Part shown: positions 7,290 through 24,890 of the stretch, piece after piece | How the letters are laid out: each line of letters opens with the position of its first letter | How positions within the stretch are numbered: position 1 is the first letter of the stretch | Source: Nitrososphaerota archaeon | GTDB lineage: Archaea; Thermoproteota; Nitrososphaeria; Nitrososphaerales; Nitrosopumilaceae | DNA length: 24,890 bases | NCBI GenBank assembly: GCA_022574415.1 | Contig: JACZSC010000008.1 | Location: 1 to 24,890 of the forward strand | Direction of reading: 5' to 3' | The notes under the pieces: model-generated | What the model saw: only the letters and a program-made list of their open reading frames with translations | What the model was told of the DNA's origin: nothing | The model's database searches: none | Program-made: the position numbers and the translations under genes

Positions 7290-7304
7290 GTTCGTATCGA
7301 ATGT
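7290..7304 (+). repeat. GTTCGTATCAAATGT-family motif copy (GTTCGTATCGAATGT)
   Basis: One mismatch to the consensus. Intergenic, upstream of the left Fic-flanking direct repeat. Confidence 0.8.
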
Positions 7305-7357: not shown

Positions 7358-8242
7358 TCAAAGATATCTTCTGTATTCCTTGATGTATCTTTTTATGAGC
7401 CATTGAAGGAATATTCTTTCCTCGTTTTTCACCTGTGATCTTTCCAAGGCATTATAGTAGCTATTTCTTCCCTCATATGGAATATCAAGCATTGGATAGT
7501 TTTTCCTGTTAAGGATAAAGTTCATGACAAGCCTGGTAATCCTGCCATTTCCATCACCGAATGGATGTATTGTAACAAATTTCAGATGTGCCAGTGCAGC
7601 AAGCTCAACTGGATGAATCTTATTCTTGCTTTTGTGGTACCATTTGAAAAAATCTGTCATCATAGGGTATACCTTTACGGGTGAAGGAGGCATGAACTTG
7701 CTACCGCTAATTGCTACTTGGTATTTTCTTATCTTTCCAGAGATGTCGGGTTTTGTCAGATGGAAAAGCTCCCAGTGCCAGTCCAGTATTTCCTGCAATG
7801 ACAAGTCTTTTTTCTGTTTTAGAATTTTATAGAACAGATCCCTGTGGGCCTCGGCTTCTTGTACATCTCTCATTGGTTTGCCTTTTGGTGCAATGCCCCT
7901 TTCCAGAAGATCTGCTGTTTCTCTTCTGGTGAGTGTTGATCCTTCTATCCTTTGGGTATCGTATGTAAATCTGGTGGCAAAATTTTGCAGCTCTTTTTCT
8001 TTGATAGATTTTGGTGCTGCCCTTTGCTCTTTGTAAAAGTGCTTTTTGATTGTATCAATATCATCGTACCATTTTTCTTTGTAGATATCATCAAGAAATT
8101 TTTTCTTGATCTTGATGATGTTTTTTGGGATTTTCGTGCCAAGGTAGAGCTCCTTTTTCTGTACCTTTTTGCCGTCCCTCGTGCTATGTTCTAAATAGTA
8201 GTAGATCTTTTTCTTGAGTATCTTCTTTTTTATGGTAACCAT
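7358..8242 (-). CDS. fic: Fic/DOC-family protein (AMPylase-type)
   Basis: 294-aa ORF containing the canonical Fic active-site motif HPFGDGNGRITR (HxFx[D/E]GNGRxxR). Confidence 0.9.
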   Translation of the reverse strand: MVTIKKKILKKKIYYYLEHSTRDGKKVQKKELYLGTKIPKNIIKIKKKFLDDIYKEKWYDDIDTIKKHFYKEQRAAPKSIKEKELQNFATRFTYDTQRIEGSTLTRRETADLLERGIAPKGKPMRDVQEAEAHRDLFYKILKQKKDLSLQEILDWHWELFHLTKPDISGKIRKYQVAISGSKFMPPSPVKVYPMMTDFFKWYHKSKNKIHPVELAALAHLKFVTIHPFGDGNGRITRLVMNFILNRKNYPMLDIPYEGRNSYYNALERSQVKNEERIFLQWLIKRYIKEYRRYL

Positions 8243-8300
8243 AATATTGGTTACCCCTACATATTTATATAATTTTCATTTTTACTGAAAATGTAGGGGT
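8243..8300 (-). promoter_or_regulatory. Putative Fic promoter: TATA-like box embraced by inverted repeats
   Basis: ATATTTATATAA (8261-8272) lies about 20-30 nt upstream of the ATG at 8242 on the minus strand. The 10-bp inverted repeat ACCCCTACAT (8253-8262) / ATGTAGGGGT (8291-8300) flanks it. A second palindrome, GGTAACC-N8-GGTTACC (8234-8255), covers the start codon. Confidence 0.4.
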
Positions 8301-8375
8301 AAGAATCCGCCAGGATTTAGTTCTACTCCCTAACAGTCATATTCCCTGTATAGGAATTGAACTAAATGGTTGAAT

Positions 8376-8413
8376 CCATTGAGACCTGCACCATTTATGG
8401 GATTATTTTAGAC
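8376..8413 (+). repeat. Right copy of ~38-bp direct repeat flanking the Fic gene
   Basis: See 7313-7350. Confidence 0.75.
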
Positions 8414-8422
8414 CCGTTAACG

Positions 8423-8464
8423 GTTCGTATCAAATGTAATTCAGGTCTAAACGAATTTATCGAT
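8423..8464 (+). repeat. 42-bp flank sequence 'X' (starts with the GTTCGTATCAAATGT motif), identical copy at 23043-23084
   Basis: GTTCGTATCAAATGTAATTCAGGTCTAAACGAATTTATCGAT is 42/42 identical at both loci. Here it abuts the casposon left end. Confidence 0.95.
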
Positions 8465-8465
8465 T

Positions 8466-8518
8466 ATCGATAAAAAGGCAATCCCCCCCTCTCACGAAGA
8501 AAAATGTGACGGGTAATC
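8466..8518 (+). repeat. Casposon left terminal inverted repeat (TIR-A, left)
   Basis: ATCGATAAAAAGGCAATCCCCCCCTCTCACGAAGAAAAATGTGACGGGTAATC. Its exact reverse complement is at 16908-16960. It contains a C7 run that stands out in AT-rich DNA. Confidence 0.95.
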
Positions 8519-8574
8519 TTCGTAACCTTTTTAGCTGAAATGTGCGTAAACCATGGTAGACCGAGGTAAACAAA

Positions 8575-8844
8575 ATGCCAACAATATCAGCAAAACTGTC
8601 AAAGAAAGAACATGATGCAATTGTTGAATATGCAAATGCTTGTGGAGAAACAGTATCTAATCTTGTAAGAAAGGTAATGTTGACTGAGGCTACCTTCATG
8701 AATGGTTATCATGATTCTATGGATTATCACTATGAGATCACAGTTCCTGATAATGTTTCAGGTGAAGAGGAAGATAGAATTGTTTTAGGTGCCTACAATA
8801 AAATTAGAAGAATTTTAGGTTTGAAAGAGCAAGATGAGATTTAA
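8575..8844 (+). CDS. Small ribbon-helix-helix (CopG/MetJ-like) DNA-binding protein
   Basis: 89-aa ORF. The N-terminus MPTISAKLSKKEHDAIVEYANACGETVSNLVRKVM fits a beta-strand/helix/helix RHH pattern. It is the first gene inside the left TIR. Confidence 0.5.
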   Translation: MPTISAKLSKKEHDAIVEYANACGETVSNLVRKVMLTEATFMNGYHDSMDYHYEITVPDNVSGEEEDRIVLGAYNKIRRILGLKEQDEI

Positions 8845-8847
8845 GAA
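8812..8847 (+). repeat. 36-nt direct repeat (copy 1), 3' end of the RHH gene
   Basis: ATTTTAGGTTTGAAAGAGCAAGATGAGATTTAAGAA versus ATTTTAGGTTTTGAAGAGATAGATGAGATTTAAGAA at 9235-9270 (32/36). A third partial copy, AGGATTTGAAGAAATTAATGAGATTTAA, is at 8853-8880. Confidence 0.8.
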
Positions 8848-8876
8848 TTTTCAGGATTTGAAGAAATTAATGAGAT

Positions 8877-9203
8877 TTAATCTACGATTAGTTGAATCCC
8901 TTGAAGAGATAAACCGAAAATAACCATTCCTAGTGGAATATACTTTGTTTTATAATTCCAATAAACTTCAAAACCTCGATGAACTGGGTCCGTTGCTCCC
9001 TTTGGTGTATGAGCCATCTCAATATATGCAACATCTTTTTCTTCCCATCTTTCAAAACCTTTGTTAATTAGATGCTTAGTTTTCCACTTTTTCCAATTAT
9101 TCTCGGTTGGTTTTTTACCATAATACTTTATCATTAGTATAAACCCAAATATCTCACATGCAATTCCAATCACAGCAATAATTTCAAAAGATTCTAAAAC
9201 CAT
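8877..9203 (-). CDS. Small membrane protein (108 aa)
   Basis: N-terminal hydrophobic helix IIAVIGIACEIFGFILMI and C-terminal helix IPLGMVIFGLSLQGIQLI. It is bracketed by the 36-nt direct repeats. Confidence 0.55.
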   Translation of the reverse strand: MVLESFEIIAVIGIACEIFGFILMIKYYGKKPTENNWKKWKTKHLINKGFERWEEKDVAYIEMAHTPKGATDPVHRGFEVYWNYKTKYIPLGMVIFGLSLQGIQLIVD

Positions 9204-9234
9204 ACGATAGAAATTTGCATTGTATTATCTAAGG

Positions 9235-9270
9235 ATTTTAGGTTTTGAAGAGATAGATGAGATTTAAGAA
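9235..9270 (+). repeat. 36-nt direct repeat (copy 2)
   Basis: See 8812-8847. Confidence 0.8.
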
Positions 9271-9317
9271 CACTGAAAATTTGTCAAAACTTGACGATTA
9301 ATAAAATGAAAATTTAG

Positions 9318-9968
9318 TTAACTCTCTATTTTAGTAATTAATTTTTCAAATATTTCAGATGATCCTCTCAATAATTTGTAAAGTGCATCTATGTTTTGAC
9401 CCCTACTTAGCATTCTACAAGAGTAGGTATTTCCAACACTTTCGTAGCGAGGCTGAATATCTATAGAAAGCCAATCATCTAACCTATCATTATCGCCTTT
9501 AGCAGTAAAATGTAATCTGCTTGTTTGTAATGGTCTGCCTATGATTTCTTCAAAATCTTTTTGTATTCTGGAGTCTTCAGATGCTGCAGATATTGACAAA
9601 ATAGCATTTTTATCACTGATATAATTACTCATACAATCTACTTCGTAAAATCTAACAAATTTTTCAAGATTTGTTTTAAAATCACGATTTGAAACTGAAA
9701 AGAATTCTTTCTGTGCTTCAATTAAATTAGTCACCCGCGGATTATGAAAACCAAAAACTAATTTTGAATAATCTGTATAGAATTCTGTATTTTGTTTTGT
9801 AGCATTAATAGATCCTATGCTTGAAGCAGCCATGTTTTTGTAATTTAGTTGGGTTAAGATATCTGTAATTACTATTCTATCAAGAGGCCAGTAAACACTT
9901 TTCAATCTGATGCCTAATCTTTTATCAATGACCCTTTCTCTTTCAAACACAGGAATTTTTTTTGCCAT
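9318..9968 (-). CDS. Hypothetical protein (216 aa), casposon cargo
   Basis: Clean ORF 6 nt downstream of the wHTH gene on the same strand. No motif recognised. Confidence 0.6.
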   Translation of the reverse strand: MAKKIPVFERERVIDKRLGIRLKSVYWPLDRIVITDILTQLNYKNMAASSIGSINATKQNTEFYTDYSKLVFGFHNPRVTNLIEAQKEFFSVSNRDFKTNLEKFVRFYEVDCMSNYISDKNAILSISAASEDSRIQKDFEEIIGRPLQTSRLHFTAKGDNDRLDDWLSIDIQPRYESVGNTYSCRMLSRGQNIDALYKLLRGSSEIFEKLITKIES

Positions 9969-9974
9969 TGTTTA

Positions 9975-10499
9975 TCAAGTTGTACTTATAGGTTGTTGAT
10001 CCATATTCTCATAAGACATATGTGGTCTAATTTTTTGCCTTAGTGTTCCTACTAGAATAGATTCAAATTTTTCTTTGGTGCGTTCCTTTTCTTGATGATC
10101 TTGTTTTGTGATTTCTTCCCAATCTCTTGCTAGTTTGATTTCTGTTTTATCAGATCCCGACACACTTTCTGTTTTTCTTTCACTAGGATACATTATATCA
10201 AATAAGGAATCAAAAACTAATTCTGGAATGTCTGTGACATCATAATACGAAAAACCTTTATTCCCACTTTTTTCGTAAAAATTCTTTACTAAATTACCGT
10301 CTTGTAATTCGTTTAGTCGAATAGTTAAACTACTGGGACTAAATTGAAATTTTTCTTTTATTTCATTAAATGACATCTTTCCATGTTTTAGCAATGCAAT
10401 CAATAATCCAAGATTTTTTTCATCCGAAATCCCTTTTAGTAAAAGCCTTATTTCCTCAGGCATTTCGTTGGAATAATTTAATAGGGTACTAGAGTACAA
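9975..10499 (-). CDS. Winged-helix (ArsR/MarR-like) DNA-binding protein
   Basis: 174-aa ORF. NLGLLIALLKHGKMSFNEIKEKFQFSPSSLTIRLNELQDGNLVKNF fits an HTH plus wing pattern. Confidence 0.55.
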   Translation of the reverse strand: MYSSTLLNYSNEMPEEIRLLLKGISDEKNLGLLIALLKHGKMSFNEIKEKFQFSPSSLTIRLNELQDGNLVKNFYEKSGNKGFSYYDVTDIPELVFDSLFDIMYPSERKTESVSGSDKTEIKLARDWEEITKQDHQEKERTKEKFESILVGTLRQKIRPHMSYENMDQQPISTT

Positions 10500-10534
10500 T
10501 TTTCTGAATCTCAGTACAATTTCTTGTATTTTGT

Positions 10535-10544
10535 ATATTTATAA
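10535..10544 (+). promoter_or_regulatory. TATA-like box upstream of 10565..11098
   Basis: ATATTTATAA is centred about 25 nt upstream of the GTG start, consistent with a leaderless archaeal transcript. It lies in a 65-nt divergent intergenic region. Confidence 0.3.
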
Positions 10545-10564
10545 TTTGTTATGATATTAATCGT

Positions 10565-11098
10565 GTGAGTGGCCGTTGGGAAAAATACAATCGGAGATTA
10601 GAGAAGGAGTTTGAACCTCTTAAAAGAGTCATGACAATGACTATCTACGGATCGTATTATCCTCAATCAGAAAAAGACTTTCTAATAAGTCAGAGAGATT
10701 TTTTGAGAGACAAAGGATATGAAAATACGAATATTGTAGATGATTATCCTGATCCTGAACCTGATATAACTTCTTTAGAAAAAAGTATAAGATGTTTAGA
10801 ATTTTCTGATGTTAATTTTTTAGTTTTTACTAGAGAAGGAAAACGGTATGGAGTGTCAAGAGAATTAACACATATTGCAACATCAAGTAGAATGATTGAT
10901 AAAATACCTTTTTGTACCGTATTTGAACAAGTTAGAGATGAAAGAGATTCCATACCACCACTGTCTCTTGACGATATAAATAATTCAGGAATTAATAGAC
11001 GAGAATTTGAAACTGAACAACAATTGCAAACTGCTTTATCCCAACAATCTTTTGCAAAACTAAGGAGATTACAAAATACATTAATCAAACGCCTATAA
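10565..11098 (+). CDS. Hypothetical protein (177 aa); weak resemblance to nucleoside 2-deoxyribosyltransferase/TIR-like Rossmann proteins
   Basis: GTG start. The pattern MTIYGSYY ... SDVNFLVFTREGKRYGVSRELTHIA loosely resembles the strand/helix layout and G..xE motif of that fold. Not a secure call. Confidence 0.5.
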   Translation: MSGRWEKYNRRLEKEFEPLKRVMTMTIYGSYYPQSEKDFLISQRDFLRDKGYENTNIVDDYPDPEPDITSLEKSIRCLEFSDVNFLVFTREGKRYGVSRELTHIATSSRMIDKIPFCTVFEQVRDERDSIPPLSLDDINNSGINRREFETEQQLQTALSQQSFAKLRRLQNTLIKRL

Positions 11099-11164
11099 TT
11101 AATCGATATAGTCTTAATGTATAAAGTACCTTAATGTATTTTGAATTGATATAATTCAAAAATA

Positions 11165-12946
11165 TCAAACAGAGTGTTTATCAAAATAATTTAATGATAA
11201 AGGAAATGATTCATTCATAATTTTCTCATCAATAGACTTGATTTGCCCTAACCATAATCTTTTACGATCGGCATTAAGATTAACTTCTCTTTCATATTCT
11301 TTGATCTTACCAATCTCTGAAATGTTATCCTGTAAAATAGAAGAACGAAGTCTAGCACTACGAAGCAATCTAATTTTCATAATTAGTTTTCCATCTTTTT
11401 CATATGTCTGAAGATTTTCAATGTCTCGAGTTCCAAGTCTACCGAGACCACGTTGTTTCCATTTTCCATTATAACGATAAAATCCATTTTGTAAATAGAA
11501 AACATCATCAGCAGTATTCTCAAAAGAAAACTCACCTAATCTATTTGAATCAATATCTAGAAATTTTGTGACGCAAAGACTGTCAGTTGCAAAACTTACA
11601 ACATATCGTTCCAAGCCATATTTTTGCACAAATTTGTATAATTGAGCACGAGTTATGCCTGTAATTGTGGCAAAAATAACAGGATTAAATAAATTTCCTA
11701 TTTTAAATCGAATTCGCTCACCAGTTTTTCCATAGATGGAGTTTAGAATTATTTTAATTGGTAATTGTAGTGGATTCTTGTTTTGTTTTAGTTGTAATCT
11801 TTTTGTGTACATTTTTTCAATAAAATCTTTGAATGGAAAAAATTCTTTATCGGGAATAAATTGAAATGATTTCAAAATTTTATAATTAATGTTTTTACAT
11901 GCTCGTAACTCAGCCAGTGTGCAATAAGTTTGAAACTTTCCTGATGGGAATATAATAATATTATTTGCACGGAAAGGTAATGGTGGAATATATTTACAAT
12001 CAGAAATATTTACTTTAATTTTAAAAAAACCAAGCGTTGCATCACTTTGAATTTTATTTGATGATATCCATTGACCTTTTGTTATATCAGGAATTTTTGT
12101 TAATGCATGTGGATATGCTGAATTAATATCATAAAGATAAGCGGTTCCTATGTAGCCACGTTTTAGAATTTCAAATCTTCCACCAAAGTAACTCCTGTAA
12201 GCTAAATCTTGTATTTCATATGGTATGCAATCAAACTTTGGAATTTCAATATGATTATTGATTAGAACTTTTTCTGCAAGGTAACCAGAACTAATCCATC
12301 GTGCAGGATAAAATGAAAACGCATTATGAAATAAATTTATCCAGTGCTGTGATAATTCTTTAGTATATTTACAATCTGCAATACAATAATTTCTAACTTT
12401 AGTTTTATTTCTGTTATAATATCTTGGTGAAAATTGTGTACGTTCTTTTTTCATTAAAAGATAATCATTAGGTAGATCCTCAATGTTCTGTTGATATGCA
12501 TTAATCAATGAAGTATGATAGAACTGTGCAATATCAAAAAAGATAGAACTATGATGTCCTTTTCTGATGGCTAATTTCCTACTAGGAATATAATCTAGAG
12601 TATAGTCACCATAATGAAATCTCAATAATCCTGTCTTCTTGTAGGAATTGAGCTCTTCACCTAGCAGTTTGAGAATGACTTCAGCATCATAGGTGATATT
12701 ATAGAAAAAGTTCCATGCTCCTTGAAATTTCTTAGAAAATAGGAATTTTAGGCATGATCCAGGCGTGATTTTATCAAGGAATCGGCCATCAGAATCAGCT
12801 ATGAGGAAAGGAGTTCCCTCGTAGGTCTCAGTATCAAGACCATAAACTGTTCTAAGACTAGAACAAGCAAACCGCCTATCTTGATGAACTTTGGTTCGCA
12901 GTCTTCTAAGATCTTTGTAATCTGTTATGGGGATGGATTCTGCCAT
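11165..12946 (-). CDS. polB: Protein-primed family-B DNA polymerase (pPolB)
   Basis: 593-aa ORF. Exonuclease motifs: ExoI YGLDTETY, ExoII NITYDAEVI, ExoIII YCIADCKY. Polymerase motifs: A LYDINSAYP (DxxSxYP), B KIILNSIYGK (Kx3NSxYG), C SFATDSL (variant of YxDTDS). The compact size is typical of protein-primed PolBs. Confidence 0.92.
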   Translation of the reverse strand: MAESIPITDYKDLRRLRTKVHQDRRFACSSLRTVYGLDTETYEGTPFLIADSDGRFLDKITPGSCLKFLFSKKFQGAWNFFYNITYDAEVILKLLGEELNSYKKTGLLRFHYGDYTLDYIPSRKLAIRKGHHSSIFFDIAQFYHTSLINAYQQNIEDLPNDYLLMKKERTQFSPRYYNRNKTKVRNYCIADCKYTKELSQHWINLFHNAFSFYPARWISSGYLAEKVLINNHIEIPKFDCIPYEIQDLAYRSYFGGRFEILKRGYIGTAYLYDINSAYPHALTKIPDITKGQWISSNKIQSDATLGFFKIKVNISDCKYIPPLPFRANNIIIFPSGKFQTYCTLAELRACKNINYKILKSFQFIPDKEFFPFKDFIEKMYTKRLQLKQNKNPLQLPIKIILNSIYGKTGERIRFKIGNLFNPVIFATITGITRAQLYKFVQKYGLERYVVSFATDSLCVTKFLDIDSNRLGEFSFENTADDVFYLQNGFYRYNGKWKQRGLGRLGTRDIENLQTYEKDGKLIMKIRLLRSARLRSSILQDNISEIGKIKEYEREVNLNADRKRLWLGQIKSIDEKIMNESFPLSLNYFDKHSV

Positions 12947-13251
12947 ATAGCATCAGGAATTGAAACTTCTTGTCCTCGCTTTCGTTTTCCAAATTGTCTT
13001 CTAATATCTAAATATTTTAAGTCAGGAAAATTATCTCGGATTAATCTAATGTAACGATGGTATTTTTCTAAAGATGATGAACGTTTACTAACTTTTGGTT
13101 CAGGTGCAACAGTTACTTTTGTTTGTTTTTCTAATCTTTCTAATGCTTTTTGTGTTCTGGAACGAAGTATTCGTACTTCATTATTATTTGGAAATAACTT
13201 TAATGCATCAAGTCTTTTTAAAAGTTTATTTCTTTGTTCTTCTAAACTCAT
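12925..13251 (-). CDS. Hypothetical basic protein (108 aa) immediately upstream of polB
   Basis: Overlaps the polB start by 22 nt, indicating operon coupling. Lys/Arg-rich. No motif recognised. Confidence 0.6.
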   Translation of the reverse strand: MSLEEQRNKLLKRLDALKLFPNNNEVRILRSRTQKALERLEKQTKVTVAPEPKVSKRSSSLEKYHRYIRLIRDNFPDLKYLDIRRQFGKRKRGQEVSIPDAIWQNPSP

Positions 13252-13280
13252 AGTATCACCAAAAAAATATGAAGGTTAGT

Positions 13281-13622
13281 CTAGGTTTTTCCTAGACTAA
13301 ATCTTCGTATTGGTCTATTGTTTCTACTTTTGTCAAGATAGGTCTCGATTGTAAGTTTATCACCAATTTTGATAATGTTGTCTTTACCACCTCTAGTCCA
13401 CTGATTTAGGAGTGAACTGTTTTTTGATTCATGGCTTTTTAGAGGAACAACAATTGTATTCCATTTGTTATTCTCAAAGATTTCAGCTTCAACATTGATA
13501 GAATATTCTGTTTCAAATGTTTCAAGCTCTTTTACACGAATCTTTATTGTGTCTGGTTTGTCTTTGTCTTTGCTTTTGTATTGCCCCCACTTTAAAAAAG
13601 GAGGATAAAGAGAATCACTCAT
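13281..13622 (-). CDS. Hypothetical protein (113 aa), polB operon
   Basis: Its start overlaps the stop of the upstream AbrB-like gene by 4 nt (ATGA). The sequence looks beta-rich. No motif recognised. Confidence 0.6.
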   Translation of the reverse strand: MSDSLYPPFLKWGQYKSKDKDKPDTIKIRVKELETFETEYSINVEAEIFENNKWNTIVVPLKSHESKNSSLLNQWTRGGKDNIIKIGDKLTIETYLDKSRNNRPIRRFSLGKT

Positions 13623-13822
13623 TTTGGAATTCTCCTTTTTGTTTTGATGGGAGTTAGAATCAATCTCCCATCTTGTGACATGGAAACATTTACTTCCATG
13701 TTTTTACTGAGATAGTTCTCAGTGAATGTCTTGGGCAAAGTTACCACTTTAGAAAAATTCATGGTACTGACTTTTCTTGTGCCCAAGTCTAGATTTTTGA
13801 CTATGGATTTTACTTTAGACAT
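13619..13822 (-). CDS. AbrB/SpoVT/MazE-like swapped-hairpin DNA-binding protein
   Basis: 67-aa ORF. SKVVTLPKTFTENYL...VSMSQDGRLILTPI matches the (V/I)T(I/L)PK ... G.(I/L)(I/L)L.P pattern of AbrB-type domains. It is the first gene of the leftward polB operon. Confidence 0.5.
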   Translation of the reverse strand: MSKVKSIVKNLDLGTRKVSTMNFSKVVTLPKTFTENYLSKNMEVNVSMSQDGRLILTPIKTKRRIPK

Positions 13823-13872
13823 ATTATGCTGTTAGTAAATACCTTAAAATGGGATACTAATGTAGCCCACTT

Positions 13873-14559
13873 ATGGAACTGACCTACGGTATTGGACCAA
13901 ACAAAACCAAGTATTGCAAATTTAAGGCTAAAAACTCTGAATTTGTTTACGATATTGACGGAATTCGCAAAGGAAAAAGATTCAAACATGAACAACGCCG
14001 AGAATTAATTATTAATATTATTGCAAGAAATCACATTAGTCATAATCATTTACTACATCTTACAACAGCATTAGGAAAAATTGCAAAAAAAACTACAGTA
14101 AAAATACTCAAAGAACTAGAAGATGATCGACTAATTGAATCAGAGCAGGAAGGAAATAGTTCTAATTCTATAAAAACATGGATGATAAAATCACCAGAAT
14201 CTGAAATTGAGAAACATGCAAAAAAAGAAACACAAAACATCATTGCAAGTTTGCAAGAATACATTCAAACCATAGAGAAAAAATTTGAAAAACTAAACCA
14301 AGTTGAAAAAGATTATGCAATGGCCAATCTTTTAGACATATTACATAGTTGGCAACCAATTATTGAAATTATAAATCATGACACTAGAATTAAAAATGAA
14401 AAGAAAAAGTTTGACTCTCTTCTAAATCAAGCTTATAATATTTTAAAATATGAAAAACGTGATGGTATAGATACAAGATCATTTTTGCGTAGGTTACTGC
14501 ATCTTAAAGCATCAGAACCAATGGTTATTATGAATAATTTTTTAGAGGAAATTAAATGA
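13873..14559 (+). CDS. Putative winged-helix protein with helical C-terminal domain
   Basis: 228-aa ORF. ISHNHLLHLTTALGKIAKKTTVKILKELEDDRLIESEQ is HTH/wing-like. The stop overlaps the start of the next gene by 4 nt. Confidence 0.55.
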   Translation: MELTYGIGPNKTKYCKFKAKNSEFVYDIDGIRKGKRFKHEQRRELIINIIARNHISHNHLLHLTTALGKIAKKTTVKILKELEDDRLIESEQEGNSSNSIKTWMIKSPESEIEKHAKKETQNIIASLQEYIQTIEKKFEKLNQVEKDYAMANLLDILHSWQPIIEIINHDTRIKNEKKKFDSLLNQAYNILKYEKRDGIDTRSFLRRLLHLKASEPMVIMNNFLEEIK

Positions 14560-15125
14560 ATGACTTTACACCTAATCCATTAGTTTTACAAGAACTTGAA
14601 AAAGTCAGTCAAGTTTGGGATAACCTGATAGAAAACATGCATACAAAATCGAATAAAGATAGAATTACATCAATTCTAGTTCAAGTAATGCTTGAGTACT
14701 ACATTGATAGAATTTTGATTATTAACAAAGTTGATTCGCCTAAGAAAATTTACAAGATGAGATATGATAGTACACTCGAAAAATTAAAAGAACTCAATTT
14801 AATTGATAACAACCTTGAACATGACCTGCTGAATTTCTATGAAATTAGAAACATATATGCACATGAAATTGAAATTCATGAAAAACAGATTTTGGATTTA
14901 GTTAATGGTGTTAAAACAGTAAAGGACCCTACTAGATTTATAGAGAAAGATAGATTTCAGCAAGTTTTTCAAATTATTTTACGGCAAGTTCAGAGAACAT
15001 TTGAAGCAGTTCTAGTTAGGGAACAAGAAAAAAGTGAAGAAAATACTCACTCTATATCTCAAAATAATTCTTCTTTTTCACGTAATAGTCTACGATATTG
15101 TGAACAGCAATTTTGGCTATTGTAA
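14556..15125 (+). CDS. HEPN-superfamily (MtlR/DUF4145-like) protein
   Basis: 189-aa ORF. LEKLKELNLIDNNLEHDLLNFYEIRNIYAHE carries the Rx4H HEPN signature in the context typical of MtlR-like HEPN domains. The last ~24 codons run antisense through a cas1 3' relic, so the C-terminus may be chimeric. Confidence 0.5.
   Translation: MNDFTPNPLVLQELEKVSQVWDNLIENMHTKSNKDRITSILVQVMLEYYIDRILIINKVDSPKKIYKMRYDSTLEKLKELNLIDNNLEHDLLNFYEIRNIYAHEIEIHEKQILDLVNGVKTVKDPTRFIEKDRFQQVFQIILRQVQRTFEAVLVREQEKSEENTHSISQNNSSFSRNSLRYCEQQFWLL
15052..15123 (-). pseudogene. Relic of a second, diverged cas1 3' end
   Basis: It translates to ITIAKIAVHNIVDYYVKKKNYFEI*, against the intact Cas1 C-terminus ITIAKIAVQNLVEFCTGKQKEFRI*. 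Nucleotide identity is nearly complete over ACAGCAAT(T/C)TTGGCTATTGT. Homology stops exactly at the TAATCCTGAAAATTC motif (15124). Confidence 0.8.
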
Positions 15126-15144
15126 TCCTGAAAATTCTTAATTC
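15124..15144 (+). repeat. AATCCTGAAAATTCTTAATTC motif copy
   Basis: Exact consensus, directly abutting the cas1 relic. Confidence 0.85.
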
Positions 15145-15271
15145 ATAGTTTGAGATAGAAACTTTATGCCTGTCTGTGAAAAATGCGGTCAGCCAGCTTC
15201 TCAATGTATTACATGAGATGAAGCGAAGGGCGTAACTAGAATACATTATTTTTGCAAAAATCATAATCCAA

Positions 15272-15291
15272 AATCTGAAAATTCTTAATTC
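15272..15291 (+). repeat. AATC(C)TGAAAATTCTTAATTC motif copy, promoter-like
   Basis: AATCTGAAAATTCTTAATTC, followed by TTAGTTTCAACTAGAAAATTCATG. The same leader precedes the ATG at 23977. Confidence 0.85.
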
Positions 15292-15312
15292 TTAGTTTCA
15301 ACTAGAAAATTC

Positions 15313-15552
15313 ATGACCGATGATAAAAAAATGAAAATCATGTGCAAATGGTGTAATGTTTCTAAAACCTGTCACATCGTTAGTCAAGAAATTACAGATC
15401 ATCATGGACACTATGGGATAGATAGTGTTATGATGGCCAAAGTCAAAATTCACAAGCATTTCAAAGGAAAAAATTACTGCAAAGGCTCAGATAGAACAAT
15501 TACTGTACCTCTAGATAAGATACTAAAAGATAATGAAAAGAATAGAGATTAG
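15313..15552 (+). CDS. Small Cys/His-rich protein (79 aa)
   Basis: CKWCNVSKTCH...DHHGH...CKG. Preceded by the conserved leader and followed immediately by the AGATTCTAAACTCTTTTT relic. Confidence 0.55.
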   Translation: MTDDKKMKIMCKWCNVSKTCHIVSQEITDHHGHYGIDSVMMAKVKIHKHFKGKNYCKGSDRTITVPLDKILKDNEKNRD

Positions 15553-15568
15553 ATTCTAAACTCTTTTT
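15551..15568 (+). repeat. AGATTCTAAACTCTTTTT: copy of the cas1 stop-codon region
   Basis: Identical to 15773-15790, which encodes the last Cas1 codons KEFRI* on the minus strand. Confidence 0.85.
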
Positions 15569-15770
15569 TTCACAAAAATTAATGAAAAACGTGCTCAAGT
15601 GTTCGTACCAGTGCGTATTCTCGGATCAAAGTCAAACAGTAAACCTTTATCCACTTACTCGAAATGTTTGACTATGGGAGTAGGTCGAACACAAAGACAT
15701 TATTGTAACAAGTGTCATCTAAAACGCCCTAAATGTATCTGTAAAAAACAGTAAACGAGATTAATAATTC

Positions 15771-16850
15771 TTAGATTCTAAACTCTTTTTGTTTTCCAGT
15801 ACAAAACTCAACTAAATTCTGTACAGCAATCTTGGCTATTGTTATTTCATGACAAGACTTTAGACCGTCTTTGGTCTTTGCTCCATGTTTAGACGCATAG
15901 CGTCTTTCTTTCTGGAATGTTCTTTCAAGTAATTCTAAGAACCGTCTAATCAAATTATAGTCTAAAACAACTAAACCCTCTTTTGTAAAGGCGTAATCTT
16001 TCTTGTAGATTCTATGCTCTTTATTGGTTTCATTAGCTAACATGTATGCAGAATAATCAACAAGCCATCTGAACGGCTCTATCAAGTCATAAACTAACGG
16101 CTGAAAACTAATGTGTTCTTTGTGATAGAATCCAAAGTATGCATCTAGACCCATTCCGTTGATATATTTGGAAATCTCTCCAGCTAAAACCGAATAGCCG
16201 TAATTCAAAAGCCCATTAATGACATCACTAGCAGTTCTTTTTGAAATCTTCTGACTAGACTGATTTCTTGAAACAAATCCATGCCTTTCAGGAATTAGTT
16301 TTGAATATTCAATAAAGTACGCTCGACCAGAACCAGCCTCTAAACCCAATTCAGAACGTATTGAAACTTGTCTTAGATTACCCTCAAGAGTTTCAATTCC
16401 TAAATTCAAGTCAGTCCTTTCTACAGACTTTAAGAATCTGATCTGCGATTGTAATTTTGCTTTAACAATCTGCTTTGAAAGGTATCTTCTCTTTTCTGTA
16501 TCCCTAAAGGTGTCATACTGAGCCATTCGATATTTTGTCGCAGTGTTTGATTCCATTACACCATTAATCATAGAAACTGGCTTTCCGTAGGTATCTAGTA
16601 GAATAAGATTTCGATTATGTTGATTTAGTAGGCTCATGGCTTCGGTTGAAACGTAGCCTTTACCAGATAGAACGATTTTTTCATAAGGAAGATTATTGAT
16701 GAACCATTCTTCTGATTCGGATTCTTTGAATGGGTCGTAATTGTTCTTTAGAACAAGTTTGTTATCTTTTACAGAAACAGAAAAGCCGTAACCCTTGAGA
16801 AATTTTACGTTGTAATGACTGTGTTGACCTTTCTGCGTCATAACGCACAT
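15771..16850 (-). CDS. cas1: Cas1 homologue (casposase-type Cas1-solo)
   Basis: 359-aa ORF. Cas1 signatures are ILLDTYGKP (N-terminal beta domain), GLEAGSGRAYF (catalytic Glu region), NGLLNYGYSVL, and YFGFYHKEH...LVYDLIEPFR (catalytic His and Asp/Glu). A C-terminal extension is present. The gene ends 58 nt from the right TIR. Confidence 0.93.
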   Translation of the reverse strand: MCVMTQKGQHSHYNVKFLKGYGFSVSVKDNKLVLKNNYDPFKESESEEWFINNLPYEKIVLSGKGYVSTEAMSLLNQHNRNLILLDTYGKPVSMINGVMESNTATKYRMAQYDTFRDTEKRRYLSKQIVKAKLQSQIRFLKSVERTDLNLGIETLEGNLRQVSIRSELGLEAGSGRAYFIEYSKLIPERHGFVSRNQSSQKISKRTASDVINGLLNYGYSVLAGEISKYINGMGLDAYFGFYHKEHISFQPLVYDLIEPFRWLVDYSAYMLANETNKEHRIYKKDYAFTKEGLVVLDYNLIRRFLELLERTFQKERRYASKHGAKTKDGLKSCHEITIAKIAVQNLVEFCTGKQKEFRI

Positions 16851-16907
16851 TTGATCAAAATTATTACTTAACGAATTTCCAACAAATCATAACGTGCATT
16901 ATAACGT

Positions 16908-16960
16908 GATTACCCGTCACATTTTTCTTCGTGAGAGGGGGGGATTGCCTTTTTATCGAT
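16908..16960 (-). repeat. Casposon right terminal inverted repeat (TIR-A, right)
   Basis: Exact reverse complement of 8466-8518. Subterminal direct sub-repeats (C/T)ATAACGTG x2 lie at 16887-16908. Confidence 0.95.
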
Positions 16961-16961
16961 T

Positions 16962-17040
16962 ATCGATAAAAAGGGAAAGTCCCCCTCCCACGCACGAATT
17001 ACGCTTATGACTTGCGTTATGACGTGAGTTGGTTTGTTGG
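16962..17040 (+). repeat. Diverged casposon-type end (TIR-B) lying head-to-head with TIR-A right
   Basis: ATCGATAAAAAGGGAAAGTCCCCCTCCCACGCACGAATTACGCTTATGACTTGCGTTATGACGTGAGTTGGTTTGTTGG. It shares with TIR-A the ATCGATAAAAAGG terminus, a C-rich block, two CG(C)TTATGAC sub-repeats and a terminal ...TTTGTTGG (cf. CCAACAAA at 16879). Confidence 0.8.
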
Positions 17041-17051
17041 AAAGGTTAACA

Positions 17052-22012: not shown

Positions 22013-22065
22013 AACTAATCTATGATATTTGAATTTATATGTGATATTAACGCAAGGATAATAAT

Positions 22066-22109
22066 CTAAGAATTAAGAATTTTCAGGATTAATAGTTCGT
22101 ATCAAATGT
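22066..22109 (-). repeat. Composite repeat (AATCCTGAAAATTCTTAATTC motif + GTTCGTATCAAATGT motif), inverted partner of 23918-23960
   Basis: The reverse complement ACATTTGATACGAACTATTAATCCTGAAAATTCTTAATTCTTAG matches ACATTGATACGAATTGTTAATCCTGAAAATTCTTAATTCTTAT, with 1 indel and 3 mismatches. Confidence 0.85.
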
Positions 22110-22153
22110 AAAAGTGATAAAAAATAGATGAAACACTATACTATTGAAAAGCA

Positions 22154-22984
22154 TTGACATACCAACCATATGAGGGCAAAATTATTTATCAGAAAAACCT
22201 GACCGATGATCTTGCAATATTTAGACTTGAACTATCAGATAAGAGCAAAATATTAGATTTCAAGCCAGGTCAATTTGTACCGCTAGGAGTGAAAATAAAA
22301 GACAAGGTGGCGTACAGAGCTTACTCGATTTCATCACCTCCTGAAGAAAGAAGATATTATGAATTTTACATCAGATGGGCAACAAAGCCGGTTTTAGGTA
22401 AAATAACCAGCGCTCTTTTTACTTTGAAAAAAAATAAGCTTATCTTCTGGCGAAAACCTGCAGGAGTTTTTACCATCGAAGATAAAAAACCGAATGGAAC
22501 CACTGAGAGTAGGCAGATGATTCTCGTTTCTTCAGGAACAGGTATTGCCCCATTTATCAGCTACATACTACACTTGAGAAAAGTAGGTTCGAAAAGAAAG
22601 ATCGTTTTGCTTCATGGTGCCAAATATGTTGCAGAGTTAGGTTACAAAAATATGCTTGAAAGACTAGCATCTGAAACTAGAGACAATTGGGATTTCACCT
22701 ACATACCTACGGTTAGCCAGCTGGATCATCCCTCATCTACGGGGTGGACAGGAAATGTTGGACGAGTGGGTGACTTACTAATAGATATCGACAATCACAG
22801 GTCAGAACTAGAAAAAAAATTAGGAAAAAATGTCACTCCAAAAAATTCATTCTTTTACATTTGCGGATACAATAATACAATAAATAGAGTCATTTCATTT
22901 TTGACCCCACTAGGTTTTGTTTCCAATCGAAATAAAAGAAAAGACGGATCCTTTGACATAAAGTCTGAATCATACGGAGAGTAA
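22154..22984 (+). CDS. Ferredoxin-NADP+ reductase-type FAD/NAD(P)-binding oxidoreductase
   Basis: 276-aa ORF (TTG start in the track). FAD-binding RAYSISS (RxYS) motif, NAD(P)-binding VSSGTGIAPF motif and C-terminal FYICGY-type motif. Confidence 0.8.
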   Translation: MTYQPYEGKIIYQKNLTDDLAIFRLELSDKSKILDFKPGQFVPLGVKIKDKVAYRAYSISSPPEERRYYEFYIRWATKPVLGKITSALFTLKKNKLIFWRKPAGVFTIEDKKPNGTTESRQMILVSSGTGIAPFISYILHLRKVGSKRKIVLLHGAKYVAELGYKNMLERLASETRDNWDFTYIPTVSQLDHPSSTGWTGNVGRVGDLLIDIDNHRSELEKKLGKNVTPKNSFFYICGYNNTINRVISFLTPLGFVSNRNKRKDGSFDIKSESYGE

Positions 22985-23042
22985 TCTTCTAAATAATTAT
23001 CTTTGAAATTTGATTATTCAGACTAGAACAAATCTGTTGACA

Positions 23043-23084
23043 GTTCGTATCAAATGTAATTCAGGTCTAAACGAATTTATCGAT
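23043..23084 (+). repeat. Second copy of 42-bp flank 'X'
   Basis: 42/42 identical to 8423-8464. Confidence 0.95.
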
Positions 23085-23165
23085 AAAGAGTGAAAATAGA
23101 ACTTCCCTCTCCGACGCACAAATTCCTATTATAACTATCGTTATGACGTGAGTTTGTTTTGTTGG
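23079..23165 (+). repeat. Solo casposon-type end (TIR-B'), related to 16962-17040
   Basis: ATCGATAAAGAGTGAAAATAGAACTTCCCTCTCCGACGCACAAATTCCTATTATAACTATCGTTATGACGTGAGTTTGTTTTGTTGG aligns along its length with TIR-B (shared CGACGCAC/CCACGCAC, CGTTATGACGTGAGTT, TTTGTTGG). No partner end and no cas1/polB are nearby. Confidence 0.8.
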
Positions 23166-23483
23166 AGATTTGAAAAAAGAAAAACAACGATTAAACTAAA
23201 AAAATAGAGTAAAATGTCTATTCAATAGTATTTTAAAAGATACCAATTCTGTTGTAATACATTGCCAGAACATACTAAAGAATGTGAGTATAGAATCACT
23301 CATGACTTTAGGCATGATAACTGTTTTTGTGAATGTCATGACAAAGGGAAGTATCATGGAAGAATTACCAAAAATGTTAGAAAAAGCAATACCAATACTA
23401 CAAAAGCAAGCAAAGATTAGTTAGGCAACTTAATTTGTTTTTCTAAATCTCGTAATTTCCTTGATAAATTATCACAATTCCTC

Positions 23484-23527
23484 TAAGTTCTAAATTATCT
23501 TTTTGTAATCCTGAAAATTCTTAATTC
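23484..23527 (+). repeat. cas1-3'-end-like relic fused to AATCCTGAAAATTCTTAATTC motif
   Basis: TAAGTTCTAAATTATCTTTTTGT (cf. TTAGATTCTAAACTCTTTTTGT at 15771-15792) is followed directly by AATCCTGAAAATTCTTAATTC (23507-23527). Confidence 0.7.
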
Positions 23528-23623
23528 ATTTCTGAAATAAATGTCGAATTAGGTCATTTTGTTAGATTTCAGTGGGTATTGCCTTTTATTGAGAGTAAAA
23601 AGACAAAGCACTAGGAATAAGAT

Positions 23624-23773
23624 ATGAAGTACATGTGTAGAACCTGTAAAAAAAAATGTGATGATATTATAGAACATTTGATGACAGTACACAAATTTTC
23701 AAAAACAACTATAGAATCTCAACTCAAAGCAAACCCAAATAGTTTTAACCATGCCTTTGAAAAATTAGAATAA
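23624..23773 (+). CDS. Possible mini zinc-finger protein (49 aa)
   Basis: MKYMCRTCKKKCDDIIEHLMTVHKF... has CxxC...HxxxH spacing like a C2H2 finger. It is below the ORF-track size cut-off and was found by manual translation. Confidence 0.35.
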   Translation: MKYMCRTCKKKCDDIIEHLMTVHKFSKTTIESQLKANPNSFNHAFEKLE

Positions 23774-23788
23774 ACATTCAATACGAAC
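23774..23788 (-). repeat. GTTCGTATCAAATGT-family motif copy (GTTCGTATTGAATGT on minus strand)
   Basis: The plus strand reads ACATTCAATACGAAC. Confidence 0.7.
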
Positions 23789-23917
23789 TGTTACAGAGTC
23801 TTTTTTTCTTTGAAATGGCTATTTGAAACACGGAAGCTGATAGCGTGCTTTGAATAACGCAACACGTTTATTCATTTGCTTGACTAATGTACCTCATGTC
23901 TTGTTGGCTTCCGTCTA

Positions 23918-23960
23918 CATTGATACGAATTGTTAATCCTGAAAATTCTTAATTCTTATG
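23918..23960 (+). repeat. Composite repeat, inverted partner of 22066-22109; also left arm of a ~25-bp inverted pair with 24357-24382
   Basis: See 22066-22109. TAATCCTGAAAATTCTTAATTCTTA versus the reverse complement of 24357-24382, TAATTCTGAAAATTCTTAATTCTTAA. Confidence 0.85.
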
Positions 23961-23976
23961 TTGATCTAGAAAATTC

Positions 23977-24315
23977 ATGAATTTTGAACTGAAAAAAACT
24001 CTGTCAATAAAGATAAAACGCTTAGATATGTTCCCAAATTACTTTTTTGGAATTGCTGAGATAAATGGAGAAGACTACAAGATTAACATTCAAGGTCAGA
24101 GTGTATTTACAAAAAATTCAATCAAATTGCCAATAAAATTTAAAGATGAAAAAGCATTATTACGTCTAAGCGGAATTAATGGTTCTTATTTTGAGGATAT
24201 TGTAAATTACGAAGGAAAATCAGAATGGATAGAAATAGGTTCTGATAGAATTTTGTTCTATTTGGCAGATCATCAAGACCAAATTAACATTATAGATGTT
24301 CTAAGTAGATTCTAA
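23977..24315 (+). CDS. Hypothetical protein (112 aa) in a repeat-bounded cassette
   Basis: Preceded by the same leader as 15313..15552 (CTAGAAAATTCATG). The stop lies inside an AGATTCTAAACTCTTTTT relic. Confidence 0.55.
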   Translation: MNFELKKTLSIKIKRLDMFPNYFFGIAEINGEDYKINIQGQSVFTKNSIKLPIKFKDEKALLRLSGINGSYFEDIVNYEGKSEWIEIGSDRILFYLADHQDQINIIDVLSRF

Positions 24316-24398
24316 ACTCTTTTTGTTTCATCCTGGACTCCTAAACCCTTTTTTTATTAAGAATTAAGAATTTTCAGAATTAAAAAAGAGTTTAGAAT
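24307..24398. repeat. Inverted pair of cas1-3'-end relics enclosing an inverted AATTCTGAAAATTCTTAATTC motif
   Basis: AGATTCTAAACTCTTTTT at 24307-24324, GAATTAAGAATTTTCAGAATT at 24361-24381, and AAAAAGAGTTTAGAAT at 24383-24398. Confidence 0.8.
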
Positions 24399-24410: not shown

Positions 24411-24890
24411 CTAGAGGCGTAATTTAGATTCTTTATCAGATTTCTCAGAGTTATTCTTGACTTTCTTTGCTTCTAGTATAGATTCTCGCTCTGCTTTCTC
24501 AGCTTCTCGTTGTTGTTTCTCTGCTTCGAGTTTAGCTATTTGATCAGCCTGACGCTGAGCTTTCTCAGCGTCTAGTTGTAGTTGCTTGGCTTCTTGTTTA
24601 GCTAATCTATCAGCTTCCCTCTGAGCCTTGTCAGCTTCGAGTTTAGCTAGTCTATCAGTTTCTCTCTGAACTTTCTCTGCGTCACGTTGTTGTTTCTCTA
24701 ATTCTAATTGTAATTGCTTTGCTTCTTGTTTAGCTAATCTATCAGCTTCCCTCTGAGCCTTGTCAGCCTCTCGCTGTAGTTGCTTGGCTTCTTGTTTAGC
24801 TAATCTATCAGCTTCCCTCTGAGCCTTGTCAGCTTCTCGCTGTAGTTGCTTTGCTTCTTGTTTAGCTAATCTATCAGCTTCCCTCTGAGC
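24411..24890 (-). CDS. Coiled-coil tandem-repeat protein, C-terminal part (ORF continues beyond the window)
   Basis: Manual minus-strand translation gives ...AQREADRLAKQEAKQLQREADKAQREADRLAKQEAKQLQ... ending ...KSDKESKLRL* with the stop at 24411-24413. It is open to the window edge. Confidence 0.7.
   Translation of the reverse strand, partial: AQREADRLAKQEAKQLQREADKAQREADRLAKQEAKQLQREADKAQREADRLAKQEAKQLQLELEKQQRDAEKVQRETDRLAKLEADKAQREADRLAKQEAKQLQLDAEKAQRQADQIAKLEAEKQQREAEKAERESILEAKKVKNNSEKSDKESKLRL
24530..24890. repeat. 66-bp tandem repeat (22-aa coiled-coil period)
   Basis: GTTTAGCTAATCTATCAGCTTCCCTCTGAGCCTTGTCAGC recurs at 24596, 24728, 24794 and 24860 (spacing 66 or 132), with diverged units between and before. 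Confidence 0.85.

Follow-up and report, generated by a model that had tools for sequence, protein, structure and literature searches.

A single 13-bp TSD between an intact family 1 casposon and a lone casposon end in a thaumarchaeal contig

Results

An intact casposon (A) and a lone casposon end (B) meet in the window, the whole 24,890-nt stretch of DNA analysed here, across exactly one copy of a 13-bp TSD, ATCGATTATCGAT. The junction is probably a single TSD between two members of a casposon array, A having integrated at the leader-proximal TSD of the older, decayed B. The features of the junction and of the intact element are given below in window coordinates.

8459..8471 (+): left TSD copy ATCGATTATCGAT, 13 bp, directly outside the TIR tip
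8472..16954 (-): casposon A, intact, 8,483 bp, with Cas1 and pPolB between the TIRs
8472..8518 (+): distal (left) TIR of A, 47 nt, beginning AAAAAGGCAATCCCCCCC; same TIR in L019 and L020
16878..16954 (-): cas1-proximal (right) end of A, with the 47-nt TIR, two CGTTATRA sub-repeats and TTTGTTGGA
16955..16967 (+): right TSD copy ATCGATTATCGAT, the single copy between A and B, directly outside the TIR tip
16968..17041 (+): B, lone end of the cas1-proximal type, tip left, reading AAAAAGGGAAAGTCCCCCTCCCACGCACG...CGTTATGACGTGAGTTGGTTTGTTGGA

Casposon A

Element A is an intact family 1 thaumarchaeal casposon, a self-replicating Cas1 transposon. The initial annotation had already taken it for a casposon, and this is borne out by the presence of Cas1 and pPolB, by 47-nt TIRs that match each other perfectly and by an exact 13-bp TSD. 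Cas1 (15771-16850(-), 359 aa) matches PF01867 over residues 20-309 (E=8e-46) and TIGR00287 (E=4e-44); no domain besides PF01867 was found in it, in keeping with family 1, in which a C-terminal HTH is not expected. The protein-primed family B polymerase, pPolB (11165-12946(-), 593 aa, PF03175 E=1e-25), aligns over its full length with the polymerases of the related loci L004 and L007 at 61-65% identity, and homologues of the two small genes adjoining it (12925-13251 and 13281-13622) also lie next to pPolB in L002, L004, L007 and L008. The Cas1 relatives of A (54-93% identity) come almost all from Nitrosopumilus, Nitrosarchaeum and Nitrosotenuis MAGs, and A, which has a thaumarchaeal host, fits family 1 as defined by Krupovic et al. 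(PMC4046053; PMC6563490). The sole exception among these relatives, L012 (JAZHEE010000088.1), is a 924-nt contig filed as Rosenbergiella sp. with a coverage of 0.6; it is thaumarchaeal casposon DNA, 94% identical to window 15594-16018, and probably a contaminant of the Rosenbergiella sp. assembly. The gene ef-2 is absent from the window, and A does not show the usual (not universal) family 1 integration at the ef-2 3' end; ef-2 is not the sole target of family 1 casposons (PMC6563490).

A repeat finder paired 8456-8518 with 16908-16970 as an inverted repeat of 63 nt (98% complementary), which is made up of TTT, the TSD and the 47-nt TIR. Beyond the TIRs, the two ends of A are of different types. 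The TTTGTTGGA block and the sub-repeats of the right end are common to the cas1-proximal ends of L002Y, L004, L017 and L020, and both are marks of the cas1-proximal end type; the distal end of A has neither the TTATGA sub-repeats nor TTTGTTGGA.

The junction and its boundaries

Positions 16937-16985 read ...GGGGGGGATTGCCTTTTT ATCGAT T ATCGAT AAAAAGGGAAAGTCCCCC..., and the region around 16930-16995 can be divided as ...CGTGAGAGGGGGGGATTGCCTTTTT-ATCGATTATCGAT-AAAAAGGGAAAGTCCCCCTCCCACG.... The inverted repeat proper of A stops at 16954 (...CCTTTTT) and B starts at 16968 (AAAAAGGG), giving the layout ...GCCTTTTT-ATCGATTATCGAT-AAAAAGGG... with one TSD copy between the two element ends. Within the window, ATCGATTATCGAT occurs in two exact copies only, those flanking A. 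In the initial annotation the two ends were one base apart and ATCGAT belonged to the TIRs; the left copy of ATCGATTATCGAT (8459-8471) and a third related end at 23092 did not appear in it. The full 13-bp TSD in fact separates the ends, which shifts the boundaries by 6-7 nt. ATCGAT must lie outside the TIR, because an identical A-type TIR in L019 is preceded by ...ATCGATAAAGAGTA, that is, it follows ...GAGTA.

We tabulated 22 related casposon ends, and every tip reads (A/G)AAAA. The 13-nt block before the tip starts with A and closes with T in 20/22 of them, and the block is preceded by TTT, belonging either to the leader or to the TIR of the neighbour, in 20/22. Two other delimitations were tried and rejected. 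A 7-bp TSD (TATCGAT) with TIRs starting from ATCGAT requires a 1-nt offset of the flanks, and relatives carry the 13-mer right against AAAAA. A TSD of ATCGATAAAAAGG with A starting from CAATCC was discarded on the same grounds.

The right arm of A (16878-16960, reverse-complemented) and the arm of B (16962-17044) gave a global alignment score of 27, far above the scores of 1000 dinucleotide shuffles (mean 3.5 +/- 1.9, maximum 13; z=12.3), and z was 5.7 when the common first 13 nt were left out. The formal alignment that had been proposed as a check thus upholds the view that two related ends face each other across the junction. Equally real is the mirrored layout described for the arms: each has an A-run, a C-rich block, CACG, two TTATGA-type sub-repeats and TTTGTTGGA, an order that recurs in the cas1-proximal ends of related elements. 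Since two related ends face each other, the junction forms a long imperfect hairpin, and 16878-17044 as single-stranded DNA folds at -37.9 kcal/mol as compared with -16.3 +/- 2.9 for shuffled sequence (z=-7.4). The repeat finder also detected a short inverted repeat of 31 nt with its centre at 16961.

Lone ends B and C

B is a bona fide, diverged casposon end, as the initial annotation had supposed. It is 85% identical to the live end of L017 and L018 (AAAAAGGGAAAGCCCCCCTCCCACGCG...CGTTATGACGTGAGTTTGTTTGTTGGA). In both contigs that end lies 85-100 nt upstream of a cas1 with 93% identity to that of A; B is assigned to the cas1-proximal type because the same end type adjoins cas1 in these two loci. 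To its right, no homologue of cas1, pPolB or any casposon-locus gene was found at 17.1-23.0 kb, no partner TIR of any type was found within the window, and the window holds no third copy of ATCGATTATCGAT. The ~6 kb right of B have a low GC content and encode unknown and HTH proteins (PHROGs, NCBIfam, Pfam), and the first gene past B runs convergent toward it.

A second lone end, C, lies some distance further right, behind a second copy of the leader.

8417..8440 (+): dyad-symmetric motif TTAACGGTTCGTATCAAATGTAAT, outer leader; 7 window copies with <=2 mismatches to GTTCGTATCAAATGT
8441..8458 (+): leader core TCAGGTCTAAACGAATTT, ending in TTT; the same 18-mer, without mismatch, at 23061-23078, in L019 and in L021-L024
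17046..17069 (+): copy of the dyad motif, TTAACAGCTCGTATCAAATGTTAA, directly inside B; a similar one after the L022 end and a degenerate one after the right end of A
23036..23078 (+): second leader copy (dyad motif and core), 40/43 nt identical to 8416-8458
23079..23091 (+): canonical TSD ATCGATAAAGAGT; same 13-mer in L019, L021, L022 and L023
23092..23166 (+): C, second lone end of the cas1-proximal type (GAAAATAGAACTTCCC...TTTTGTTGGA); B vs C z=22

C is 76% identical to the L017 end, and the repeat finder returned a direct repeat of 76% between 16952-17035 and 23076-23159. The orthologous metagenome contig L021 is 98.6% identical to window 22510-24136, so C is an established feature of the population. 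The leader and the TSD lie directly outside both B and C, and no casposon genes stand behind either end. Both B and C therefore have what defines a solo TIR, namely homology to live ends and an adjacent target or TSD with no casposon genes. All leader-adjacent lone ends (6/6) are of the cas1-proximal type with the tip toward the TSD; in live elements, by contrast, it is the distal end that faces the leader in 4/5.

Several other features of the window were recorded. The motif TAATCCTGAAAATTCTTAATTC occurs in ~10 copies, in both orientations, inside casposon A and right of C (repeat finder: 8838-8871, 15120-15146, 15267-15293, 22063-22091, 23503-23529, 23931-23957 and 24358-24388), and the right end of the window thus has regulatory-looking DNA in common with the casposon. 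Window 23674-23914 is 89% identical to L012 678-918, a part located ~430 nt downstream of cas1 in the close relative of A; it holds a GGAAGC...GCTTCC stem, has no match in Rfam and could represent either a small RNA or DNA of the casposon lineage. At 22095-22135 a copy of the dyad motif is followed by AAAGTGATAAAAAATAGATG, which bears a faint likeness to an eroded TSD and end tip (TCGATAAAGAGTAAAAATAGA); the equivalent locus in L022 has the full leader, the TSD and a lone end. A gene at 105-1949 encodes a 614-aa pentapeptide-repeat protein with dozens of 15-nt units (Pfam E=4e-157), and a separate array with a 66-nt period at 24460-24890 runs past the right end of the window. Finally, a 93-nt direct repeat (6326-6418 vs 6587-6679, 90% identical) in the glycosyltransferase gene 4744-6714(-), within its 5' part, seems to be a domain duplicated internally.

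Leader and target

The leader core TCAGGTCTAAACGAATTT and the canonical TSD ATCGATAAAGAGT recur together in L019 and in all four sites found by the single metagenome scan (L021-L024). Each of the six genomic contexts of the leader site, the window included, is occupied by a casposon end, and these ends are of at least five sequence types while the leader is essentially invariant. The other side of such a site is seen in L017 and L020 as TIR-ATCGATAAAGATT-AAAAAC..., adjoining a methyltransferase gene. In a scan of viral contigs the leader pattern had no match and the 19-nt palindrome had two, both unrelated; tRNA and Rfam scans of the window found nothing.

Over 22 positions, the final 9 nt of the leader and the canonical TSD agree with the ef-2 3' end of L004 at 19, and together they would encode NEFIDKE followed by a stop codon, the corresponding ef-2 end in L004 being NEFIDRE and a stop. 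No long ORF ends at the leader in L023, where the neighbours are host genes, e.g. that of the proteasome alpha subunit. The lineage uses intergenic target sites that mimic the ef-2 3' end outside ef-2, in agreement with the published remark on family 1 targets other than ef-2 (PMC6563490).

The dyad motif (TTAACAGTTCGTATCAAATGTTAA-like, ~24 nt) precedes the leader core also in L019, L020, L021, L022 and L024. Its copies in the window are at 7290, 8423, 17052, 17685, 22095 and 23043 on the (+) strand and at 23774 on the (-) strand, and further copies were seen in L012, L020, L022 and L024. The motif is dispersed and intergenic, often stands right past the stop codon of an opposite-strand gene, and occurs inside related casposons as well; it looks operator-like.

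The TSD that flanks A departs from the canonical one. ATCGATTATCGAT differs from ATCGATAAAGAGT at 6 positions, and consists of canonical positions 1-6, then T, then these six positions again in reverse complement. Taken from the side of B it reads ATCGATAATCGAT, in which canonical positions 1-8 are kept, including the ATAA ruler; it is without A11, a residue that is essential for the N. koreensis enzyme (PMC8464041). We considered that the palindromic form may stem from B having been inverted between its two TSD copies, with the breaks at positions 6 and 7. Such an inversion would give exactly TTT-ATCGAT-TATCGAT-AAAAAGGG, and if it did occur, a ACTCTTTAAGAGT-like junction is predicted.

Related loci

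The order of leader, TSD, intact element, TSD and neighbouring end recurs in L019, L004 and L007, and in L002 with two intact elements. L019 reads leader-ATCGATAAAGAGT-A-type element-ATCGATAAAGAGT-B/C-type end, the same arrangement as in the window; the search of related genomes that had been suggested thus recovered ends of both types. In L004 the intact element is beside ef-2, with ...GGGGGGATTCTATTTTT-ACTCTCTGTCGAT-ef-2 3' end on one side and ...GCCTTTTT-ACTCTCTGTCGAT-AAAAATAGAATCCCCCC... on the other, and its distal neighbour is a remnant with a pPolB fragment only. In L007 the element is flanked by ACTGACAATCTCT at either side, and the 13-mer stands immediately next to AAAAATAGAA. In L002, a Nitrosarchaeum MAG, 7829-11068 covers two complete casposons head-to-head at the ef-2 3' end, each with cas1 and pPolB, and their cas1-proximal ends are separated by ATTCTCTGTCAAT, which occurs a second time beside ef-2.

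Two of the related elements, L019 135-4494 (4.4 kb) and L020 ~92-2431 (~2.3 kb), have cas1, TIRs and TSDs and no polymerase gene, and may be non-autonomous mini-casposons. The contig end of L020 carries a 94-nt inverted duplication (2274-2367 vs 2822-2915, 98% complementary), in all likelihood a fold-back from the assembly; L020 needs care in its right part.

Discussion

Origin of the junction

The sequence of events that we favour starts with an older family 1 casposon of the B type, which would have integrated at the conserved leader (...TCAGGTCTAAACGAATTT) and its 13-bp target with the cas1-proximal end facing the leader, and would later have decayed to a lone end of ~75-110 bp. Its leader-proximal TSD copy would have stayed intact between the TTT of the leader and the AAA of the first bases of B, flanks that we infer to be the minimal features read by the family 1 casposase. 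A would then have entered by a staggered attack 13 bp apart, by which ATCGATTATCGAT was duplicated and the order leader-TSD-A-TSD-B arose. Because family 1 ends begin with AAAAA and finish with TTTTT, both TSD copies are bracketed by TTT and AAA; the minimal target would thus survive each insertion, and arrays would build up. In later insertions the 18-nt leader would favour the leader-proximal TSD copy.

No empty or pre-A site was found: exact look-ups of the Fic and Cas1 proteins matched nothing, a neighbour protein had only its own contig as a close match, and the window is the sole close copy of the locus. The order of insertion is therefore read from the intact state of A and the decay of B. 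In the window, L019 and L004 it is the intact member that lies next to the leader, and both members are intact in L002; the first three are the three informative loci, with age judged from decay. The initial annotation had A inserted exactly at the tip of a pre-existing, related end. A pre-existing related end fits the same order in L019 and L004, but the two ends do not abut, a full 13-bp TSD lying between them. Nor do the terminal 13 nt of the resident end have to recreate the target, since the leader (..TCAGGTCTAAACGAATTT) and the TSD of the older insertion suffice; B contributes to the target at most its AAA.

The junction has the two ends and one TSD expected of a tandem array, and B was not found to continue into a second member with genes of its own and two ends, there being no cas1, pPolB or partner TIR to its right. 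One could still regard B as the cas1-proximal end of a larger cas1-less casposon, non-autonomous or carrying cargo only, that extends to the right and makes up a two-element tandem array. A cargo gene between the end and cas1 is frequent in live relatives (L002Y, L004, L019), Cas1 elements without pPolB are known in L019 and L020, and the low GC content and the unknown and HTH proteins of the 6 kb right of B would suit such an element. We consider it unlikely, as a second TIR of any type is lacking rightward within the window, a third TSD copy is absent, the genes at 17.1-23.0 kb are without a homologue in any casposon locus, and the first gene past B is convergent on it. The reverse order of events, in which A was the resident and its spacer-side TSD took in a short piece from the terminus of a B-type casposon, has little probability. 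The N. koreensis casposase does integrate TIR-derived DNA of 7 nt to ~4 kb (PMC8464041), and once A has been inserted, TTT flanks the right TSD copy as well. A full-site insertion, though, would add a TSD copy right of B, where none is present; B is 15% diverged from live B-type ends, whereas the TIRs and TSDs of A are perfect; and the decayed member is distal in L004 too.

About as improbable is that the TIRs include ATCGAT and that the resident end's own terminal 13 nt, ATCGATAAAAAGG at 16962-16974, served as the target. This 13-mer is similar to ATCGATAAAGAGT (11/13 to the canonical TSD) and retains A1, A11 and the ATAA ruler named in PMC8464041, yet the ends of A would then be unequal, with 14 extra nt on the right only. 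In addition, the identical A-type TIR in L019 is preceded by ...AAAGAGTA and not by ATCGAT, the 13-mer stands directly against AAAAA in L004, L007 and L002, and a perfect 13-bp direct repeat suffices for both junctions. The window is a metagenome-assembled contig, and in such contigs repeats can be mis-joined; an assembler might have joined two loci via the repeated TIR and TSD, the window being a whole MAG contig and L020 ending in an artefact-like 94-nt fold-back. The repeat at the ends of A is inverted, however, and a mis-join would flip A and leave its flanks unchanged, while the same architecture is present independently in L019, L004, L007 and L002, which makes an artefact slightly less probable still. 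A conserved regulatory sequence of the host, with no relation to the ends of mobile elements, would accord with the near-palindrome folding well as a hairpin; this reading, which the initial annotation had named as one that would overturn its own, is refuted by the homology of both arms to the termini of cas1-bearing elements in other samples.

A broader idea is kept open at low probability because of the odd TSD, the bias in end type and the scattered dyad motif. It is conceivable, if rather doubtful, that the dyad motif, the 18-nt ef-2-like leader, the TSD of 13 bp and the lone cas1-proximal end form a dispersed, possibly portable landing pad. In that case the casposase would be recruited by the resident end with its sub-repeats, together with a factor on the dyad motif, and each new element would be steered to the leader side, and the palindromised TSD would be a by-product of inversion or re-integration at the pad.

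Comparison with known systems

The integration of A into the leader-proximal TSD of an older member, which remains our preferred reading, is an arrangement already known for casposons, both as tandem elements with one TSD and as solo TIRs, and no new type of system is involved. Tandem casposons with one common TSD have been described for family 2 in Methanosarcina (Krupovic et al. 2016, PMC4779613), and for family 1 as NitNF5-C1/C2 in ef-2 of Ca. Nitrosopumilus adriaticus (Krupovic et al. 2019, PMC6563490). Our locus has in common with them the one TSD between the ends, the inactivation of one member and the reuse of the target. It differs in that the second member is a lone end only, in that the target is intergenic and merely mimics the ef-2 3' end, and in that both meeting ends are cas1-proximal (head-to-head), as they are in L002. 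Solo TIRs have been documented in Methanosarcina mazei (Krupovic et al. 2016, PMC4779613). As there, a single TIR is kept beside a conserved target motif with no casposon genes; the lone ends described here, by contrast, belong to family 1 and are thaumarchaeal, the leader-adjacent ones are all cas1-proximal with the tip toward the TSD, and one of them has since taken in a full casposon.

The casposase of NitAR1-C1, a family 1 element of N. koreensis, produces the 13-bp TSD ATTGATAAAGAGT and has TTT as its minimal leader (Wang et al. 2021, PMC8464041); integration also needs the spacer side's first 3 bp, A11 of the TSD is essential, and ATAA acts as the ruler (PMC8464041). A agrees with this enzyme in the 13-bp length, in the leader-terminal TTT and in A1 and T13, and the canonical ATCGATAAAGAGT is 12/13 identical to ATTGATAAAGAGT. 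The TSD of A itself, ATCGATTATCGAT, departs from it, with the ATAA ruler present from the B side only and A11 missing. Natural sites, moreover, have a conserved leader of 18 nt, where 3 bp are enough in vitro. Leader-proximal spacer acquisition in CRISPR offers a further parallel, for there too a Cas1-family integrase duplicates a repeat of fixed length beside a leader. The newest insert may likewise be nearest the leader here, a polarity read from three loci only; in contrast with CRISPR arrays, there is no Cas2 and no repeat array, and the inserts are whole transposons.

Significance

The locus is a clean natural case of repeated site-specific family 1 integration outside ef-2. On the evidence of the DNA sequence, it supports the rule of a 13-bp TSD and a TTT leader that had been measured in vitro for one enzyme. 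It also offers a simple reason for the formation of arrays, as the A5/T5 tips would regenerate TTT-TSD-AAA on both sides with each insertion. Solo TIRs, which have been proposed as possible intermediates toward CRISPR repeats, are now extended to thaumarchaeal family 1 casposons, and the landing pad, if true, would stand between casposons and CRISPR arrays as a natural intermediate of the leader-repeat-insert kind.
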